From NCBI GenBank assembly GCA_016187335.1, contig JACPJW010000001.1, positions 608,001 through 672,000 on the forward strand: a stretch of DNA of 64,000 nt. The letters run 5' to 3'. The notes below the pieces were generated by a model. It saw only the letters and a list, made by a program, of their open reading frames with translations. It searched no databases and was not told the DNA's origin. This document shows, one piece after another, positions 19,813 to 26,712 of the stretch. The position numbers were made by a program, and so were the translations under genes. Source of the DNA: Candidatus Aenigmatarchaeota archaeon. Its GTDB lineage: Archaea > Aenigmatarchaeota > Aenigmatarchaeia > GW2011-AR5. Within the stretch, counting starts at the first letter, position 1, and each line of letters begins with the position of its first letter.

Positions 19813-20466
19813 TCATTTGAATATCTCGCCCGTCTCCTCACTCCAAAAAAGCAGGTCAAGATGGGCAAAAGGTATTCCGCTTCGCTCAGCAAATTCCTTC
19901 ATCTTCTCCTCGATTTCCATGTACTTTTTTGGTGTCAGCGATTTCGGTATTTCCACTATGGCGCCGTATTTCAGCAGGTTCTTCAGGATATGCCTGTCCA
20001 GAATCGCCACGTCCTCGTAAAAGCCGACATTCCTGAGGAAGTGTGATGCCTCCTTGTATCCGAAGCCCTTTACATTCTTAACCAGCCATTCGCGCGCCTT
20101 CTTTGAGTCTACTTTTCCATGCAAATTATTGAACTGCTCTATCTTGTCCTTCACGGAAATCCTGCTGCTGTTGGAGAACAACTCCCTCGCCTTTATTACA
20201 TGCTTAGCCTTCTCGTTGTAGAACCGGACGCCGGCAAGCCATGCCTTAATTTGCTGCTCGTCGCCGCTGTATAAAAGCCCCGACTCTTTCAGCTTCGTTA
20301 TTGCGCGCCAGCATGTTTTCGCCTTGCTCTGCGGCGTGAGCAGGCAGAAAGCCAGCTCGGCGAAAATGAACTCGTCGCTTTCTTGCCACGCTGACTTGAA
20401 CTCGGAAAGGCGTCTTTCTATGTCAGCGCGCTTTTGATGGTATTTTTCAATAAATTCTTCTGTCAC
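19813..20466 (-). CDS. ogg: 8-oxoguanine DNA glycosylase/AP lyase (archaeal Ogg)
   Basis: ELAFCLLTPQS, GFGYKEASHFLRNVG, AILDRHIL, LDLLFW. Confidence 0.93.
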   Translation of the reverse strand: MTEEFIEKYHQKRADIERRLSEFKSAWQESDEFIFAELAFCLLTPQSKAKTCWRAITKLKESGLLYSGDEQQIKAWLAGVRFYNEKAKHVIKARELFSNSSRISVKDKIEQFNNLHGKVDSKKAREWLVKNVKGFGYKEASHFLRNVGFYEDVAILDRHILKNLLKYGAIVEIPKSLTPKKYMEIEEKMKEFAERSGIPFAHLDLLFWSEETGEIFK

Positions 20467-20484
20467 ATGATCACGTCAATTGAA

Positions 20485-20670
20485 TTAAACAGTATCCAGA
20501 GGGCTCTTATCAATGAACCTCTTTATGCAGAATACATAGGTTTTGGCTGTTTTTTCGCTGTACCTTCTTCTTTTGCATTCCCTTATGACAGCTTGTTCAA
20601 TGTCTACTGGAACGTAAGACATGTTTATCATTGCGTCATAAAGCATTAAAATTTGTAAAGGCGTTCTCAA
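20485..20670 (-). pseudogene. Truncated tyrosine recombinase (IntI/Xer-type N-terminal SAM-like domain only)
   Basis: ECKRRRYSEKTAKTYVFCIKRF resembles the integrase N-terminal motif; stops after about 45 codons with no catalytic domain; divergent from the cassette array. Confidence 0.7.
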
Positions 20671-20689
20671 AAAAACGCCCTTTCAGGTC

Positions 20690-20736
20690 GTTTTAAGTGA
20701 AAATCTTCAGATTTTCGCTAAAAGTCTGTTATACGA
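20690..20736 (+). other. attI-like recombination site
   Basis: ...CGCTAAAAGTCT|GTTATAC; GTT core at 20728; resembles attI1 CCCTAAAACAAAGTT; lies between integrase remnant and first cassette. Confidence 0.55.
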
Positions 20737-20794
20737 AATAATGCTCGAGACTCAGAAAGATAAATTTATAAAGAATTAATTATTAATTAGACGT

Positions 20795-21049
20795 ATGGAT
20801 ATATTTACAATTATAGGGTTAGTTGCGGCAACATGTACAACTATTTCGTTTGTACCTCAAGCAATTAGAATCATAAAAACCAAACAGACAAAAGATTTGT
20901 CATTAGCGATGTATTCAATATTCACAACCGGAATATTTTTATGGTTAGTTTATGGAATTCTTGTTAAAGATTTACCTTTAATAATTGCAAACGCAATAAC
21001 ACTATTATTTACTTCTACTATTCTAATTTTAAAAATTAAATATAAGTAA
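20795..21049 (+). CDS. SemiSWEET/PQ-loop sugar transporter (cassette 1)
   Basis: 84 aa, 3 TM, SFVPQA, TKDLS, WLVYG. Confidence 0.88.
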   Translation: MDIFTIIGLVAATCTTISFVPQAIRIIKTKQTKDLSLAMYSIFTTGIFLWLVYGILVKDLPLIIANAITLLFTSTILILKIKYK

Positions 21050-21106
21050 CCGTCTCGAGCATTACTCAAGGGGACGCTGCGCTTTCGTCGCTATCGCTCC
21101 CCACCC

Positions 21107-21127
21107 TCGTATAACAAGGGTTAGCAG
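21107..21127 (+). other. Collapsed attC-like junction between cassettes 1 and 2
   Basis: TCGTATAAC-AAGG-GTTAGCAG; both R cores present, inner stem absent. Confidence 0.6.
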
Positions 21128-21179
21128 AAATGCTTGCAAGCCGCAAATGTTATTAATGTTTTTTCTTCAAATATAAGAC

Positions 21180-21839
21180 ATGTTAAAAGGCATAATATTT
21201 GATTTAGATGGTGTACTAGTTGATACGGAATCATATCAATGGCTTGGCTGGGTTGAAGTATTGAAACCATATGGTATTACTTTGCATAAACAAGAATACA
21301 TTTTGAAATATGCCGGCAAAACCGGAACTATTATCGAAAGTGAATTGTTAAAAAGATATGGACTAGATGCTGTGGATGGAGCGCTATTGCACAAAAAAGA
21401 AAAATTACTACTTAAATGGTTTAGTGAAAGACAAATTGATTTGATGCCTTATGCAAGAGAATCCGTAGAATTTTTCCATGATAAACGTTTGAAAACCGGA
21501 ATAGTTTCTGGGGGGCCTAGAGATGAAGTTGAATTGAAATTAAAAAGAACTGGACTCCATCCACTATTTCAAACTATAGTATCAAGAAGCGAAGTTGAAA
21601 GAGGAAAACCAAACCCAGATATTTATTTACTTGGTTTAGAAAAACTTGGCTTAGAATCTGCAGATTGCGTTGTTTTTGAAGATACCCAATATGGCGTTGA
21701 AGCTGCTGTAGCGGCAGGTATTACATGTCTGGCTATTCCAAATGAATTTTCCAGAAATCAAGATTTTTCAAAGGCAGATAAAATGTCCAATAACTTAAGA
21801 GAAGCTGTAAATTGGGTAAAGCAAACATATAATCTTTAA
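21180..21839 (+). CDS. HAD-family phosphatase (beta-PGM-like subfamily; cassette 2)
   Basis: FDLDGVLVDTE, GKPNPDIY, VFEDTQYG. Confidence 0.9.
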   Translation: MLKGIIFDLDGVLVDTESYQWLGWVEVLKPYGITLHKQEYILKYAGKTGTIIESELLKRYGLDAVDGALLHKKEKLLLKWFSERQIDLMPYARESVEFFHDKRLKTGIVSGGPRDEVELKLKRTGLHPLFQTIVSRSEVERGKPNPDIYLLGLEKLGLESADCVVFEDTQYGVEAAVAAGITCLAIPNEFSRNQDFSKADKMSNNLREAVNWVKQTYNL

Positions 21840-21891
21840 TGAGGCGGCTCGCTCGCACTCAAAATTGCTTTGCAATTTTGCCCTTTGGGCC

Positions 21892-21971
21892 TGCTAACAG
21901 CCGTTTTACGGAAAATCTCTGGATTTCCCCAAATTCCCTTCGGGAACTTCGTAAAACGGCATACGTTAAGC
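21892..21971 (+). other. attC-like site 2
   Basis: TGCTAAC-A-GCCGTTTTACG...CGTAAAACGGC-ATAC-GTTAAGC, perfect 11-bp inner stem. Confidence 0.75.
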
Positions 21972-22033
21972 GACATATTACTCGGGCGGCGGCTAACGGA
22001 AAGTTTATAAAAATCAATGTAATATTCAATCAT

Positions 22034-22594
22034 ATGAAGAACGCTTTCATATTTCATGGAACTGAGGGATACCCTGAAGAGAATTGGTTTCCTTGGTTAA
22101 AACAAGAATTAGAGAAGTTAGATTACCAAGTCTACGTGCCACATTTTCCATCTCCTCCAAAAATTCCAGCAAAAATATCTGAGTGGTTTGATGTTCTCAA
22201 AAAATATGAGAAATACATAAACGAAGATACAATCCTTATTGGTCATAGTCTTGGTGGAATTTTTACTCTTCGTTTATTGGAGAAATTGGAACATCCTGTT
22301 AAAGCTGGAATTTTTGTTGGTACTCCTATAGGTGTTCGCCCTATTTTAAATTATGATAGGGACAATGGTTTTAGTGGTTTTGATTTTGATTGGAACAATA
22401 TCACAAATAAAGCAAAACATTTTTTGGTGTTCCAATCTGATGATGATCCCTATGTTTCTCCTGGTAATGGCGAACACCTTGCAAAGAATCTAAATGTGGC
22501 ACTAAATTTTGTTCCAAATGCAGGACATTTCAATAAAAGAGCGGGTTACACAAAATTTGACTTGCTACTTGAAAAACTAAAACCAATTCTCTAA
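22034..22594 (+). CDS. RBBP9/YdeN family alpha/beta serine hydrolase (cassette 3)
   Basis: FIFHG...NWFPWL, GHSLG, SDDDPYV, AGHFN; start moved to ATG 22034. Confidence 0.9.
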   Translation: MKNAFIFHGTEGYPEENWFPWLKQELEKLDYQVYVPHFPSPPKIPAKISEWFDVLKKYEKYINEDTILIGHSLGGIFTLRLLEKLEHPVKAGIFVGTPIGVRPILNYDRDNGFSGFDFDWNNITNKAKHFLVFQSDDDPYVSPGNGEHLAKNLNVALNFVPNAGHFNKRAGYTKFDLLLEKLKPIL

Positions 22595-22681
22595 CGCCGC
22601 CGCCCTGCGTCATACGCCTTCGCTCCTTTCAGTCGCTCGGGGGACGCTGCGCTTTCGCTTCACTTCGTTCCGCTCACCCTC

Positions 22682-22781
22682 GCTTAACAAGGGATATACG
22701 GTTCGGGGCTCGGCTCGCCCCTCACCCAAATTTTTCTTCCACTTCGTTCCAGAAAAACTTCGTATATCCCTGACGTTAAAC
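22682..22781 (+). other. attC-like site 3
   Basis: GCTTAAC-A-AGGGATATACG...CGTATATCCCT-GAC-GTTAAAC. Confidence 0.75.
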
Positions 22782-22861
22782 TCAATTGCGAGTCTGCCTC
22801 TTTGAGGTTGCCACCGAAAATAAATCAAAAGATATATTAACACTAAAGCAATATTATCATC

Positions 22862-25531
22862 ATGAAAGGGTTTTTTATTATCTTACTTGTGGCTCTTGTG
22901 TCTGTAAATACGGCTATGGCTGATGATTTGCACATAGAAAGAACAAGCGGGCCTTCGGCAGGCGCGATAAAATTTGGCATGGGTTTTGCAGCTAATGACC
23001 CAGATACCATCTATGTTGACAGGTATAAATCAGTTGATGGTGGAACAACATGGAAAGAAATTGTGCTTCCGCAGGATAATGCTGTTGTAAATCTGGCTGT
23101 TGATCCAAAAGATTCAAAGAAGGTGTATCTTGCCTTCAACAATCAGCTTTACAAAAGTTCTGATGGCGGGACCACATGGCAAAAGCTGGATTCTCTGGGG
23201 CCAGATCCTGAAAGTGAAATGTGGCACGGTGAGGCCATAACTTCCATAGCTATTAGTCCTGACAATGGCGATATTATGCTAGGAGGAACTACGCATGGCG
23301 GATTATACAAATCAACTGACGCCGGAAAAACATGGAAAAATATACCGCTTGGAATCGCAACTCCTGTCAGCAAAATAGCATTCAATCCAAAAAATACACA
23401 AGAAATATATGTTTCAACAGGGCTTTGGTACTGGGATTCTTTGATTGGGAGAAAAGATAAAAAAGGCGATGGTCTATTCAAATCAATTGACGGTGGAGAG
23501 ACATTCTCAAAATTACAGAATGAGTTTGCATCATTTTTAGTGCAGGATGTTGATGTCGTAGGAAATACAATATATGTATCAACGGATTATGCTCCGGACA
23601 GCGAAGAAGAGTGGTATGGTGTTTACAAGTCTGAAGACAGCAGTGCAACATGGCAGAAGATGTGGGACTCGCGCAATAGTGAGGTTGCAAGGATAACTCA
23701 CGTCGCAGTTGATCCTTCAGACAAAAACCATATTATTGTTTCCGGAAGTAATGACAAGCCGTTTTTTCTTTCATATGATGGAGGCACGACATGGAAATAC
23801 CTAGGCCTTGAAGAATCAGAACCGATACAATATACCCACGCCCTGGAATTCACAAATGACGGGAGGGTATATGCTACAACCTATTACAGGCCATTTATGA
23901 AATCTGTTGATGACGGAGAAACATGGAAATGGTTTGCGGAAGGAATAGACAGGAGCACCATTACCTCCCTTGAGCTGCACCCTGCCAATAGAAATGCCGT
24001 TATTGCAGGAACAAAAGACGGGGCTTTGCATATAACTTACGATGGAGGAAAAGTATGGAACAGGTTTTTCGGTGACGAATTTGAAGGCTCCTACATTGCA
24101 GCAATCAAATTCGATCCTTCCAATTCCGGGAAGCTTTATATCGGCGTTTCCGGACCAATGGATGTAAAGACAGGAAGGTACTATGGTGCTCCGTGGCGCG
24201 ATACAGGATTCTATGTCTCAAATGAAGACAATAAATGGACAAAGGCTGTGGGACTGAACCACCCTCAGGAAAAGGATTTCCAATTGGAAATATACGACAT
24301 TCTTATTCTGCCAGAAAATCCAAGGATTATCCTTGTTGCAACGTCTTCAGAAGGTGTTTACAGGAGCGAAGATGGAGGCAAGGCCTGGAAAGAAGCAAAT
24401 GATGGTATACCAAAAGAAGGATTTTATTGGCAATTAAATTTATTGCCTGAGGGGTATACGCCTAGGGAAGAGTGCGAGGAAAGATACAAAAGGTATCAAC
24501 GGGGAGAAAATGTTTTGCCTGGCTGCTTTTATTATGCGACACACACATCAATGAGCCTTTTTGTCAATCCGCACAATGAAAACGAGATTTGGTACACAAC
24601 ATTGGAAGGCATTTTCGTTTCTGAGGACTCTGGCAAGACTTGGAGATGGCTGTCTGATGATTTAAGGAACATCCATGCCCATTACATGGCTTTTGATCCC
24701 GAAGATCCCAATACAATTTATGTAGGCACCCATCAGGGAGCAATAGACGATAATGGCAATGTCATCAACTCTTCCCGGGGATTGCTGATTTCCCGCGATA
24801 GGGGAAAGACCTGGATACAGGTGACCAATGGACCTGGAGAAGGATATGACGTCAGGGCAATAGCAGTAAGCCCCAAAAATCCAAATCTTGTCGTTGTCGG
24901 CACCAATGATCCTTTGTTTATCAGTGAGGATAAAGGTCTAACATGGAAACAAGTGACTGTGGAAGGCAATTTACTGAAAGAGGCAGATAAAATAAAAATA
25001 GACAGCACGGCGAATGTTATTTATTTGGGCACTGGCGACACAGGAGTTTGGAGGGGTATCATAGACTACAATTCTGCCAGCCCTGCTTTGCTTGAGATAA
25101 CAGGGGTTCGTCTGCCCCAGAGAATTGAGAAAGGCATATCATTTGATGTAGTTGTATCGGTTGACAATATTGGAGCCAAAAGCGATTCTATGTCATTAAC
25201 TGTGAAGATTGGGCGAAAAGAAATTTCAAAAGAAATTACGCTTGCGCCAACCGAACAGACTGCTTTGAAATTCTCCTTGAATATGGATGAAGCAGGGATT
25301 TATGACATAATTGTGAATGGTTTAAACTATGGACAAATAAGCATTTCTGAAGAACCTGCTGATACTGGAGCATCGGAAACGGACAACACTACTGGCAATA
25401 TAGGGAAAGAGGGCAAGCAAAATATCTTTTTTGACATTTTTGATAAAGTTTTTTGGCCTGTTTTTATTATTATTTTAGTTATAGTTACGTTTTTTGTGTC
25501 CAGAAAAATATATAAGGCCATTAAGAAATAA
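22862..25531 (+). CDS. Secreted BNR/Asp-box beta-propeller (Vps10/sialidase-like) surface protein with CARDB-like domain and C-terminal TM anchor (cassette 4)
   Basis: Signal peptide, about 13 S.DGG.TW-type repeats, VSVDNIG Ig-like segment, TM plus KK tail. Confidence 0.85.
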   Translation: MKGFFIILLVALVSVNTAMADDLHIERTSGPSAGAIKFGMGFAANDPDTIYVDRYKSVDGGTTWKEIVLPQDNAVVNLAVDPKDSKKVYLAFNNQLYKSSDGGTTWQKLDSLGPDPESEMWHGEAITSIAISPDNGDIMLGGTTHGGLYKSTDAGKTWKNIPLGIATPVSKIAFNPKNTQEIYVSTGLWYWDSLIGRKDKKGDGLFKSIDGGETFSKLQNEFASFLVQDVDVVGNTIYVSTDYAPDSEEEWYGVYKSEDSSATWQKMWDSRNSEVARITHVAVDPSDKNHIIVSGSNDKPFFLSYDGGTTWKYLGLEESEPIQYTHALEFTNDGRVYATTYYRPFMKSVDDGETWKWFAEGIDRSTITSLELHPANRNAVIAGTKDGALHITYDGGKVWNRFFGDEFEGSYIAAIKFDPSNSGKLYIGVSGPMDVKTGRYYGAPWRDTGFYVSNEDNKWTKAVGLNHPQEKDFQLEIYDILILPENPRIILVATSSEGVYRSEDGGKAWKEANDGIPKEGFYWQLNLLPEGYTPREECEERYKRYQRGENVLPGCFYYATHTSMSLFVNPHNENEIWYTTLEGIFVSEDSGKTWRWLSDDLRNIHAHYMAFDPEDPNTIYVGTHQGAIDDNGNVINSSRGLLISRDRGKTWIQVTNGPGEGYDVRAIAVSPKNPNLVVVGTNDPLFISEDKGLTWKQVTVEGNLLKEADKIKIDSTANVIYLGTGDTGVWRGIIDYNSASPALLEITGVRLPQRIEKGISFDVVVSVDNIGAKSDSMSLTVKIGRKEISKEITLAPTEQTALKFSLNMDEAGIYDIIVNGLNYGQISISEEPADTGASETDNTTGNIGKEGKQNIFFDIFDKVFWPVFIIILVIVTFFVSRKIYKAIKK

Positions 25532-25668
25532 GACACTGCATTTTAATGAGTGTGGCAATTCCTTAAAGAAAAAACTACGGCAACAACGAATTTTCGGCGG
25601 ACTCGCAACTCGAAATTTTTCCCTTCGGGAACGTTGCACTAAAATTTCGTCCTCCCTTCGGTCAGAGA

Positions 25669-25756
25669 GCATAACAGGCATTAACCGACTACGCTCGGTT
25701 GCACCTCGCTCCGTCCAAATCGCCTTCGGCGACTTCGGTTAATGCCGATGTTAAAT
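25669..25756 (+). other. attC-like site 4
   Basis: GCATAAC-A-GGCATTAACCG...CGGTTAATGCC-GAT-GTTAAAT. Confidence 0.75.
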
Positions 25757-25803
25757 GAAATGGAAAGGCAAAGCTTAAAAAATGTGTTTACTTAATTAAC
25801 TGT

Positions 25804-26013
25804 ATGGCACAAAAATCCCAACAGAGTTATGGAAGATTAGGCTACTTAATATTAGGAATATTGATATTGTTTGGTGGCATTGCATTTGGAACTTATATTA
25901 TCAACTTAGTATCTCCTTTTTCAGAAACTGTGAATTTTATCATAGCTTTAATTACAATGGTTGGGATTTTTGATACATTTGTTAAACCTTTTTTGAGGAA
26001 AAAATTTCAGTGA
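25804..26013 (+). CDS. 69-aa 2-TM membrane protein (cassette 5)
   Basis: Two hydrophobic helices; paralog of 10801-11013. Confidence 0.75.
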   Translation: MAQKSQQSYGRLGYLILGILILFGGIAFGTYIINLVSPFSETVNFIIALITMVGIFDTFVKPFLRKKFQ

Positions 26014-26271
26014 CGCTTTGCCTTTCCACTCTGCGCTCCCTTCGGTCGCTTGGGGACGTTGCACTTTCGCTTCGCTCACCTCATTTAACAGGAATTATGA
26101 GGAAAATCCCTTGCAGGAATCTTCCCAAATTTGCTCCGCAAACTTCGCCAAACTGCCGAGTTGAATTCAATTGCTCGGCAGAAATATTGCGAGGGGGTCG
26201 GCTCGGCAAAGAAAGGATAAAAGACAATAAAATGTCCGGGTTTATAAATTAATCAAGCCAATTAAATTATC

Positions 26272-26712
26272 GTGGAGAAGACAAAAATCCCCGCTGTTCT
26301 GCAGAAGCGCACGGGATTCATACTTCTGGGCGCGCTCCTTTTTCTTGATACTGTCTTTGATGTCATGAGGGGCACCCAGGGAAATCCTTTGTACAAGCCC
26401 GTTGAGAACGCATTCGGCATATGGGGTCTTCCGCTTCTGGTGCCGTTTGCCTTGGCATTCTTTTACCTCGTCGTGAAGGCAGCGGGCTGGCTGGTGGAAA
26501 AATTTGACAGGGTGCCTTACGGCGAAGAGATTATCCTGACAGCCCTCGTGCTGATTTTCGCGGTTCATGACTTATGGGTGTTTTCCGTGGATTACCTTGG
26601 CTTACGGATTGTCAGCAGCTATTACCAGATGATTCCCGTTTATGTCGCTGTCGGGCTGGCGTACGGTCTGTGGGCGGAACATGTTATAAAGCGCAAAGGG
26701 AAAACGGAATGA
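26272..26712 (+). CDS. Hypothetical 4-TM membrane protein
   Basis: 146-aa hydrophobic ORF. Confidence 0.7.
   Translation: MEKTKIPAVLQKRTGFILLGALLFLDTVFDVMRGTQGNPLYKPVENAFGIWGLPLLVPFALAFFYLVVKAAGWLVEKFDRVPYGEEIILTALVLIFAVHDLWVFSVDYLGLRIVSSYYQMIPVYVAVGLAYGLWAEHVIKRKGKTE

Follow-up and report, generated by a model that had tools for sequence, protein, structure and literature searches.

Integron recombination sites are the textbook example of sites that are read by shape rather than by sequence. The cassette-borne site, attC, is defined as the segment from R'' to R', with no pairing described outside R''-R' (PMC9668308, PMC8352920); in archaea, integrons and clusters of attC sites lacking integron integrases (CALINs) have been described by Ghaly et al. 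(2022; PMC9668308). The locus considered here lies within a stretch of 64,000 nucleotides (nt) from a Candidatus Aenigmatarchaeota archaeon (assembly GCA_016187335.1, contig JACPJW010000001.1, positions 608,001 to 672,000; hereafter the window, with positions counted from its first letter), where five gene cassettes, all on the + strand, form a one-directional array at 20.7-26.1 kb. Each cassette bears a private inverted repeat of 10-14 bp, and these paired outer arms are a real and apparently undescribed extension of the recombination site. The sequence-only reading of this DNA from which the analysis set out had suggested that the feature may be undescribed, and literature searches that included the motif strings turned up no account of arms beyond R''-R' and none of this site family.

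In several respects the locus resembles a classical integron. Its sites have RYYYAAC/GTTRRRY cores and the order R''-L''-loop-L'-R', with the cassette's own TTRRRY complementary to its own R''; the arrays run in one direction and adjoin a divergent tyrosine recombinase and an attI-like site, and it is the bottom strand that folds better. Unlike classical attC, however, these sites possess a helix of 13-14 bp that lies outside the R box and is split by the crossover, as well as a conserved branch of 40-75 nt between that outer helix and R''; and, unlike classical integrons, the recombinase lacks the IntI-specific extra domain, and the cassettes appear to carry their own promoters. The Vibrio cholerae repeats (VCR) are comparable in forming a highly uniform site family within a gene pool, and in pairing at their own ends slightly beyond the 7-nt core, but they have neither a separate outer arm nor a conserved branch outside R'', and are served by a classical IntI with the extra domain.

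A further parallel is offered by CTX-type phages. In work of 2005 attributed to Val and colleagues, the single-stranded hairpin attP(+) is reportedly recombined with dif by XerCD, through one strand exchange that is then resolved by replication. In the CTX case, a Xer-type recombinase without the IntI extra domain thus takes a folded single-stranded hairpin as one partner, and on this precedent the extra domain would not be strictly required for folded-hairpin recombination. Unlike the family described here, CTX integrates a phage genome at dif, and it lacks a cassette array, a split stem for each cassette and a conserved side branch.

Outer arms and their covariation

All five arm pairs proposed in the sequence-only reading were recovered when recomputed, with 13/13, 11/14, 10/10, 12/13 and 14/14 complementary positions in cassettes 1 to 5 (Table 1), as was the additional cassette 4 pair TTGCCAC/GTGGCAA at 22808 and 25552. 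In four of the five cassettes the 3' arm begins 1-4 nt after the stop codon. An attC-type site closes each cassette, and the crossover cores GTTRRRY lie at 20728, 21120, 21965, 22775 and 25750. The R'' of each site is complementary to the 5' TTRRRY of its own cassette, at 7/7 positions in cassettes 1, 2, 3 and 5 and at 5/7 in cassette 4. Such a match is the signature of integron-type exchange at G|TT; it fixes the crossover there and places the arms outside the R box. Among the related sites described below, an exact 7/7 own core lies upstream of 46 of 87.

Related loci were fetched from a collection holding one genome per species, with one exact 18-mer from the conserved motif, giving at least 120 loci. 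About a third of 120 matches were chance occurrences in G+C-rich genomes and were removed by requiring the context CACC...NNNNAAC, which left about 80 real sites. These derive from DPANN archaea, Patescibacteria and metagenome-assembled genomes (MAGs) under several other labels, which may be unreliable where contigs are short. An unbiased search was made for the best inverted repeat between the 75 nt before the motif and up to 3.5 kb upstream. For about 35 of the roughly 80 sites, the best repeat lay exactly behind the cassette's own R'-GAAA, R'-GACA or R'-GACATATTACTC, with its partner abutting CTCAA, CGC.. or TGCGTCATACGC. In 45 unique cassettes, own ends scored a median of 13, with 39 reaching at least 10; mismatched (non-cognate) ends from the same cassettes scored a median of 6, with 2.2% reaching 10. 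When 35 related cassettes were anchored on the connectors, cognate arms matched at a mean of 12.7 of 14 positions, and non-cognate arms reached 11/14 or better in about 1.3% of pairs.

The anchored set also defines the shape of the stem. Positions 1-13 are Watson-Crick paired in 86-100% of cases, with all four pair types present at positions 3-13; pairing then drops to 63% at position 14 and to about 31-37%, the background, at positions 15-16. This drop indicates a helix of defined length, 13-14 bp. The register is likewise fixed: the stem begins directly after R'-GAAA or R'-GACA and stops directly before CTCAA or CGC. The connectors themselves covary, GAAA occurring with CTC and GACA with CGC, so that the third base of one follows the middle base of the other. 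In a third connector class, to which cassette 3 of the window belongs, GACATATTACTC is paired with TGCGTCATACGC; within this class the arms differ between loci L009, L030, L043, L060 and L096. The arms, then, exist, are specific to each cassette, have a fixed register and length, and are covarying and conserved. The claim that they are unique to each cassette holds in that they pair only with their own partners, but they are not wholly private sequences: nearly all begin with a T:A pair, G+C predominates at the distal end, and cassettes 2 and 4 have similar arms.

Conservation between homologous cassettes is consistent with this pattern, and the arm-to-arm covariation that had been proposed as a check is seen both across cassettes and between homologues. 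Many MAGs encode a protein 83-94% identical to that of cassette 1. Homologues that retain the site also retain the arms, which are unaltered in L256; two compensatory double changes are found, G:C to A:T in L259 and C:G to T:A in L263. In copies of cassette 1 without a site (L263, L258, L257, L260), arm complementarity is decayed or gone. The homologous cassettes of L036 and L065 are 79% identical as DNA and differ in their R and L boxes, yet both 14-nt arms are identical; at that overall identity, about 0.1% would be expected by chance. In these sequence comparisons, the arms behave as a maintained structure. The labels attached to L256-L263 (Marinimicrobia, Bacteroidota, Methanocellales, a single-cell genome of Halobacteriota, Patescibacteria and Woesearchaeota) point to cross-domain sharing of the cassette. 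A TATA-like stretch upstream in the cassette 1 homologues is likewise conserved.

The controls limit the feature to this site family. Around 59 non-cassette genes of the window, the best flanking inverted repeats scored 5-9 and none reached 10. In 90 unique VCR cassettes (L128-L247), own-end pairing ran only 2-5 nt past the 7-nt core and no separate arm was found; cognate and non-cognate medians were both 6, none of the 80 scored cassettes reached 10, and two thirds of mismatched pairs extended 0 nt past the core. The arms therefore belong to this family and not to attC sites generally; the statement of the sequence-only reading that canonical attC sites pair only 6-7 nt past the crossover proved slightly too strict, given the VCR extension. 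A general repeat search of the region did not rank the arms, its output being dominated by A+T-rich chance pairs.

The bulged motif GGG(G/A)ACG(C/T)TGC(G/A)CT had been assigned to the 3' arms of cassettes 1, 3, 4 and 5. It does occur at 21070, 22640, 25627 and 26052, and only there, always on the + strand; it lies, however, 5-34 nt downstream of the 3' arms, between arm and R'', and is a separate conserved branch, not part of the arms. Across 87 sites, including 21070-21083 of the window, the two variable positions of GGGGACG[N]TGC[N]C occur as C..G (55 sites), T..A (26), C..A (3) and T..G (3), a covariation that suggests either a pair closing a TGC triloop or joint recognition of the two bases. 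RNAalifold found no consensus structure for either strand of the conserved branch taken by itself.

A XerA-type recombinase beside the arrays

An intact recombinase of about 275 aa stands head-to-head with the array in at least 12 related loci, and fragments are present in four more. The related-locus recombinase passes the cut-off of the XerA model NF040815 (250 bits; cut-off 220) and fails that of the integron integrase model TIGR02249 (193 bits; cut-off 265). Where the solved IntI4 structure has the 61 residues of the integron-specific extra domain (residues 178-238), it has 17, about 44 fewer. The arm-bearing sites are a widespread family whose arrays adjoin a XerA-type recombinase without the IntI extra domain.

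In the window, what is left of this platform is a 61-aa open reading frame (ORF) divergent from the array. It matches Pfam Phage_int_SAM_4 (E 2.3e-5, 25.1 bits, below the cut-off of 27) and positions 5-32 of TIGR02249 (E 0.01), and has the motif RYSxKTxKxYxF in common with the intact 275-aa recombinases of the related loci. The one full tyrosine recombinase of the genome (L007) was considered and rejected as the partner of this array: it is Xer-like with a zinc ribbon, lies about 100 kb away, and is neither an IntI nor adjacent to the array. With five sites at 20.7-26.1 kb and no IntI, the array fits the definition of a CALIN (at least two attC sites within 4 kb). No integron integrase with the IntI extra domain stands beside it, only the 61-aa remnant here and the XerA-type enzyme in related loci; software applying the usual criteria would report such arrays as lacking an integrase.

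Upstream of the recombinase, 90-140 nt before its start, seven related loci (L070, L121, L068, L097, L082, L021, L075) have a semi-conserved element, TTCGCATAnAA...GTTRRRY. By likeness to these, the segment of the window that precedes cassette 1 and includes its core is attI-like, and is a candidate attI.

Predicted folds and the proposed function of the arms

To represent an excised circle, the 3' part of each cassette was joined to its own 5' part, and both strands were folded with DNA parameters. In the minimum-free-energy folds a three-way junction is built from the outer stem, the hairpin of the R and L boxes and the conserved region, which itself folds into one or two small hairpins; this arrangement appears in 4/4 window junctions and 12/14 related junctions; the supposition that the arms extend the folded site outward once the cassette ends are joined is thus borne out by these predictions. 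The GA of the GAAA connector pairs with TC just before R'', extending the R box to 9-10 bp. On one strand the extended R box is almost continuous with the outer stem, and on the other the conserved region forms a side branch; a 2-nt unpaired spacer separates the R and L boxes. The bottom strand is predicted to be more stable than the top in all 18 junctions (4/4 in the window and 14/14 related), and joining the ends in a circle is predicted to stabilise the site by 8-14 kcal/mol relative to its context in the array. The connectors that flank the stem show the same strand preference, with two conserved A.C mismatches on the top strand that become, in 28 of 39 cassettes, bottom-strand G.T wobbles.

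Read along the top strand of a closed cassette, the site begins with the 3' arm, the CTC(AA) connector, the GGGGACG...CACCCTC branch, R'' and L'', and continues through a variable loop to L', R' (G|TTRRRY), the GA(A/C)A connector and the 5' arm. Because the crossover falls inside R', insertion splits the site: the right arm goes to the 5' end of its own cassette, the left arm remains behind the stop codon, and next to each site in the array stands an arm of the following cassette, which does not match. The 13-14 bp helix would thus re-form in two states only—in the excised circle, and in a cassette that is single-stranded over its whole length. We consider it probable that the arms form the outermost helix of an attC-type site that is compound and three-branched, is split by the crossover and re-forms only in these two states. 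Such a helix would form in single-stranded bottom-strand DNA, and only when a cassette's own two ends come together; it would contribute about 8-14 kcal/mol to the folded site of the circle, and could thereby mark the free cassette, or stabilise it, for insertion at attI. The helix and the conserved branch may jointly replace the extrahelical-base contacts made by the extra domain of classical IntI. Alternatively or additionally, the helix may zip the ends of a single-stranded cassette together for precise excision.

Several points weigh against this reading. The circle and the folded form rest on sequence and computed folds, and arms with Watson-Crick pairing could form a helix just as readily in RNA or as a cruciform. 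A recombinase that lacks the IntI extra domain might work on duplex DNA, and the stem would then call for some other explanation. In Xer-type systems the substrate is a dif-like double-stranded site of 28 bp; the hairpin layout of the present sites speaks for folded substrates. Isolated arm mismatches favour the bottom strand only modestly. A strong strand bias, suggested by a first count of six bottom-strand wobbles, was dropped, since the anchored set contains 11 bottom-strand wobbles, 5 top-strand wobbles and 12 other mismatches, a trend only, and the arm mismatch of cassette 4 in the window is a top-strand wobble. The use of a single exact 18-mer as the handle may have under-sampled divergent sites and arm-less relatives. 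Finally, the platform in the window is dead—a recombinase remnant, a cassette 1 without an L box and a cassette 5 without L' and R'—and nothing here can be active.

It has also to be asked whether the arms act elsewhere. One alternative, compatible with the split outer helix and not exclusive of it, is that they act within the array: when the bottom strand becomes single-stranded during replication, uptake or transfer, the arms would zip, set the two flanking crossover cores side by side, loop out the gene and so release exactly one cassette. The arms do bracket exactly one cassette, each matching its own partner only; the 7/7 match of a cassette's own TTRRRY to its own R'' means that zipping would align a perfect R box, and many cassettes are short (250-900 nt). 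Good arms also occur, however, on cassettes of 2.1-2.8 kb (cassette 4 of the window, L036, L065, L030 and L060), where a 13-bp helix closing so long a loop would be entropically weak, and an action within the array seems to us unlikely. We regard it as highly improbable that the arms pair in RNA, as the processing or stabilising stem of a read-through transcript. The close bracketing of the coding region, with the 3' arm so near the stop codon in most window cassettes, would suit such a stem, as would arms that pair equally well as RNA; but the 5' arm lies upstream of what appears by eye to be the cassette's own TATA-like box and would therefore be absent from the cassette's own transcript. 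Moreover, read as sense strand, the conserved connector contains two A.C mismatches, the register of the stem is set by the crossover core and not by start or stop codons, an Rfam scan of 20400-26400 at E up to 1 gave no match, and copies of cassette 1 that lack the recombination site (L263, L257, L260) also lack arm complementarity.

The arms might, instead, have no present function. The sequence-only reading had seen in them a clue to how cassettes are created, and they could be neutral scars of cassette making, left for example by snap-back copying of one end; most are perfect (13/13, 14/14, up to 24/24), as after recent copying, and their sequences vary from cassette to cassette. A scar would not, however, be expected to keep a constant length of 13-14 bp, a T:A first pair and a distal end rich in G+C, to show compensatory double substitutions between cassette 1 homologues, to stay identical in L036 and L065 at 79% overall identity, or to lose its complementarity in copies without a site. 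Constant length, conservation and compensatory change instead indicate a selected helix; an origin as scars is very unlikely, and that suggestion was not upheld. Only a negligible probability attaches to chance matches, compositional artefacts or transposon terminal inverted repeats. The cassette 3 arm is, admittedly, low-complexity G+C and the cassette 2 arm matches at only 11/14, but the non-cognate, non-cassette-gene and VCR controls all fall at background, which refutes chance. Terminal inverted repeats of transposons or miniature inverted-repeat transposable elements were likewise rejected: transposon ends are conserved between copies, whereas these arms differ, are specific to a cassette and match their own partners only, and no direct repeats were seen.

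A large cross-domain cassette family possesses an extra, selected helix that is split by the crossover and lies beyond the R''/R' definition of the site. A helix so divided raises the idea that the free and the integrated cassette are different substrates; and the family goes with a recombinase lacking the domain that is thought to have enabled single-strand recombination. These features bear on the origin of integrons, on the apparent lack of integrases in most archaeal arrays, and on how IntegronFinder and HattCI delimit cassettes. A broader proposal can be put forward only tentatively: that the outer stem and the GGGGACG branch make up a new class of structure-specific recombination site, whose three-way junction is complete only in the free cassette and which is used by a Xer-like integrase without the extra domain. 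Cassette arrays that are at present classed as CALINs without an integrase in ultra-small archaea and bacteria could then represent a distinct sister system of integrons, possibly an ancestral one, with a separate means of discriminating circle from array. We view this as possible, though on balance somewhat doubtful.

The window array and related observations

The features of the array and its platform are collected in Table 1. Complete R''-L''-loop-L'-R' sites close cassettes 2, 3 and 4. At cassette 1 (21109-21126), R''-AAGG is followed immediately by the next core, without an L box, and cassettes 1 and 2 have the look of a fusion, such as a deletion running from a secondary GTT to R' would leave. 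The site of cassette 5 has no L' or R' and breaks off after the start of L'' (26083-26181 region), where the array ends. Beyond this last site, at 26153-26181, an unrelated hairpin with an 8-bp stem, CTGCCGAG...CTCGGCAG, marks the array end. At the other end, an Ogg glycosylase gene directly follows the recombinase remnant.

Table 1. Positions of the cassette array, its recombination-site elements and the adjoining recombinase remnant in the window, with related recombinase loci.
Feature	Position	Strand	Remarks
Remnant (61 aa) of the platform recombinase, N-terminal SAM-like part	20485..20670	-	Divergent from array
attI-like site TTCGCTAAAAGTCT and first crossover core GTTATAC (20728-20734)	20714..20734	+	Equivalents in seven related loci
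Cassette gene products, in order: PQ-loop protein (84 aa, cassette 1); HAD hydrolase; serine hydrolase; 889-aa BNR/sortilin-type propeller protein; 69-aa protein without assigned function		+	
Cassette 1 connector GAAA and 5' arm TAATGCTCGAGAC (20739-20751)	20735..20751	+	13/13 against 21052-21064
Cassette 1 3' arm	21052..21064	+	Begins 2 nt past stop codon; retained in homologues L256, L259
Cassette 1 connector CTCAA, GGGGACG...CACCCTC branch, R'' GTATAAC (21109-21115), AAGG, core GTTAGCA (21120-21126)	21065..21126	+	
Cassette 2 connector GAAA and 5' arm (21131-21144)	21127..21144	+	11/14 against 21844-21857
Cassette 2 3' arm (21844-21857), CTC, small hairpin (21861-21879), R'' TGCTAAC (21892)	21844..21971	+	
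Cassette 2 L'' (21901), L' (21950), R' GTTAAGC (21965-21971)	within 21844..21971	+	Three-branch fold
Cassette 3 long connector GACATATTACTC and 5' arm GGGCGGCGGC (21984-21993)	21972..21993	+	10/10 against 22596-22605
Cassette 3 3' arm (22596-22605), connector TGCGTCATACGC, conserved branch (motif 22640), R'' GCTTAAC (22682)	22596..22781	+	
Cassette 3 L'' (22693), L' (22761), R' GTTAAAC (22775-22781)	within 22596..22781	+	
Cassette 4 connector TCAA, 5' arm (22786-22798), second distal arm TTGCCAC (22808-22814)	22782..22814	+	12/13 against 25596-25608; 7/7 against 25552-25558
Cassette 4 distal arm GTGGCAA, 3' arm (25596-25608), variant branch (motif 25627), R'' GCATAAC (25669)	25552..25756	+	
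Cassette 4 L'' (25679), L' (25736), R' GTTAAAT (25750-25756)	within 25552..25756	+	
Cassette 5 connector GAAA and 5' arm (25761-25774)	25757..25774	+	14/14 against 26015-26028
Cassette 5 3' arm, connector hairpin CTCTGCGCTCC..GTCGCTT, conserved branch (motif 26052)	26015..26102	+	3' arm 1 nt past stop codon
Cassette 5 R'' ATTTAAC (26083-26089), L'' start	within 26015..26102	+	L', R' missing
Intact recombinases of related loci			L055, L070, L019, L032, L104, L121, L021, L068, L075, L097, L044, L082; also L253:1480-2304

The genome measures 1.01 Mb in two contigs, and its DNA is present in groundwater metagenomes; metagenome contigs from a second study's groundwater sample hold the same array in the same order, with single-nucleotide polymorphisms. 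In two groundwater metagenomes from other studies, the site regions 22567-22763 and 25522-25718 reach a summed contig depth of 10-40 times the value for neighbouring genes; the family's sites are abundant in those metagenomes, in many organisms. Some contigs from other samples match the conserved connectors up to the arms, where the sequences part (joints near 21985/22604 and 22788/25606), which is a hint only, the matched sides being short (21-37 nt) and from other organisms.

Two further observations concern parts of the site. In the same genome, at about 43.6 kb on its other contig, C1 (L001:1496-1541), a solitary CTCAA-GGGGACG...ACTTAAC module precedes an ORF of about 280 aa and has no recognisable L'/R' or arm partner. 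The homologous cassettes of L036 and L065 (2.1-2.5 kb) carry, distal to their main arms, another inverted repeat, in L036 GGGACACTAAC / GTTAGTGCCCC, which resembles the TTGCCAC/GTGGCAA pair of cassette 4 in the window.

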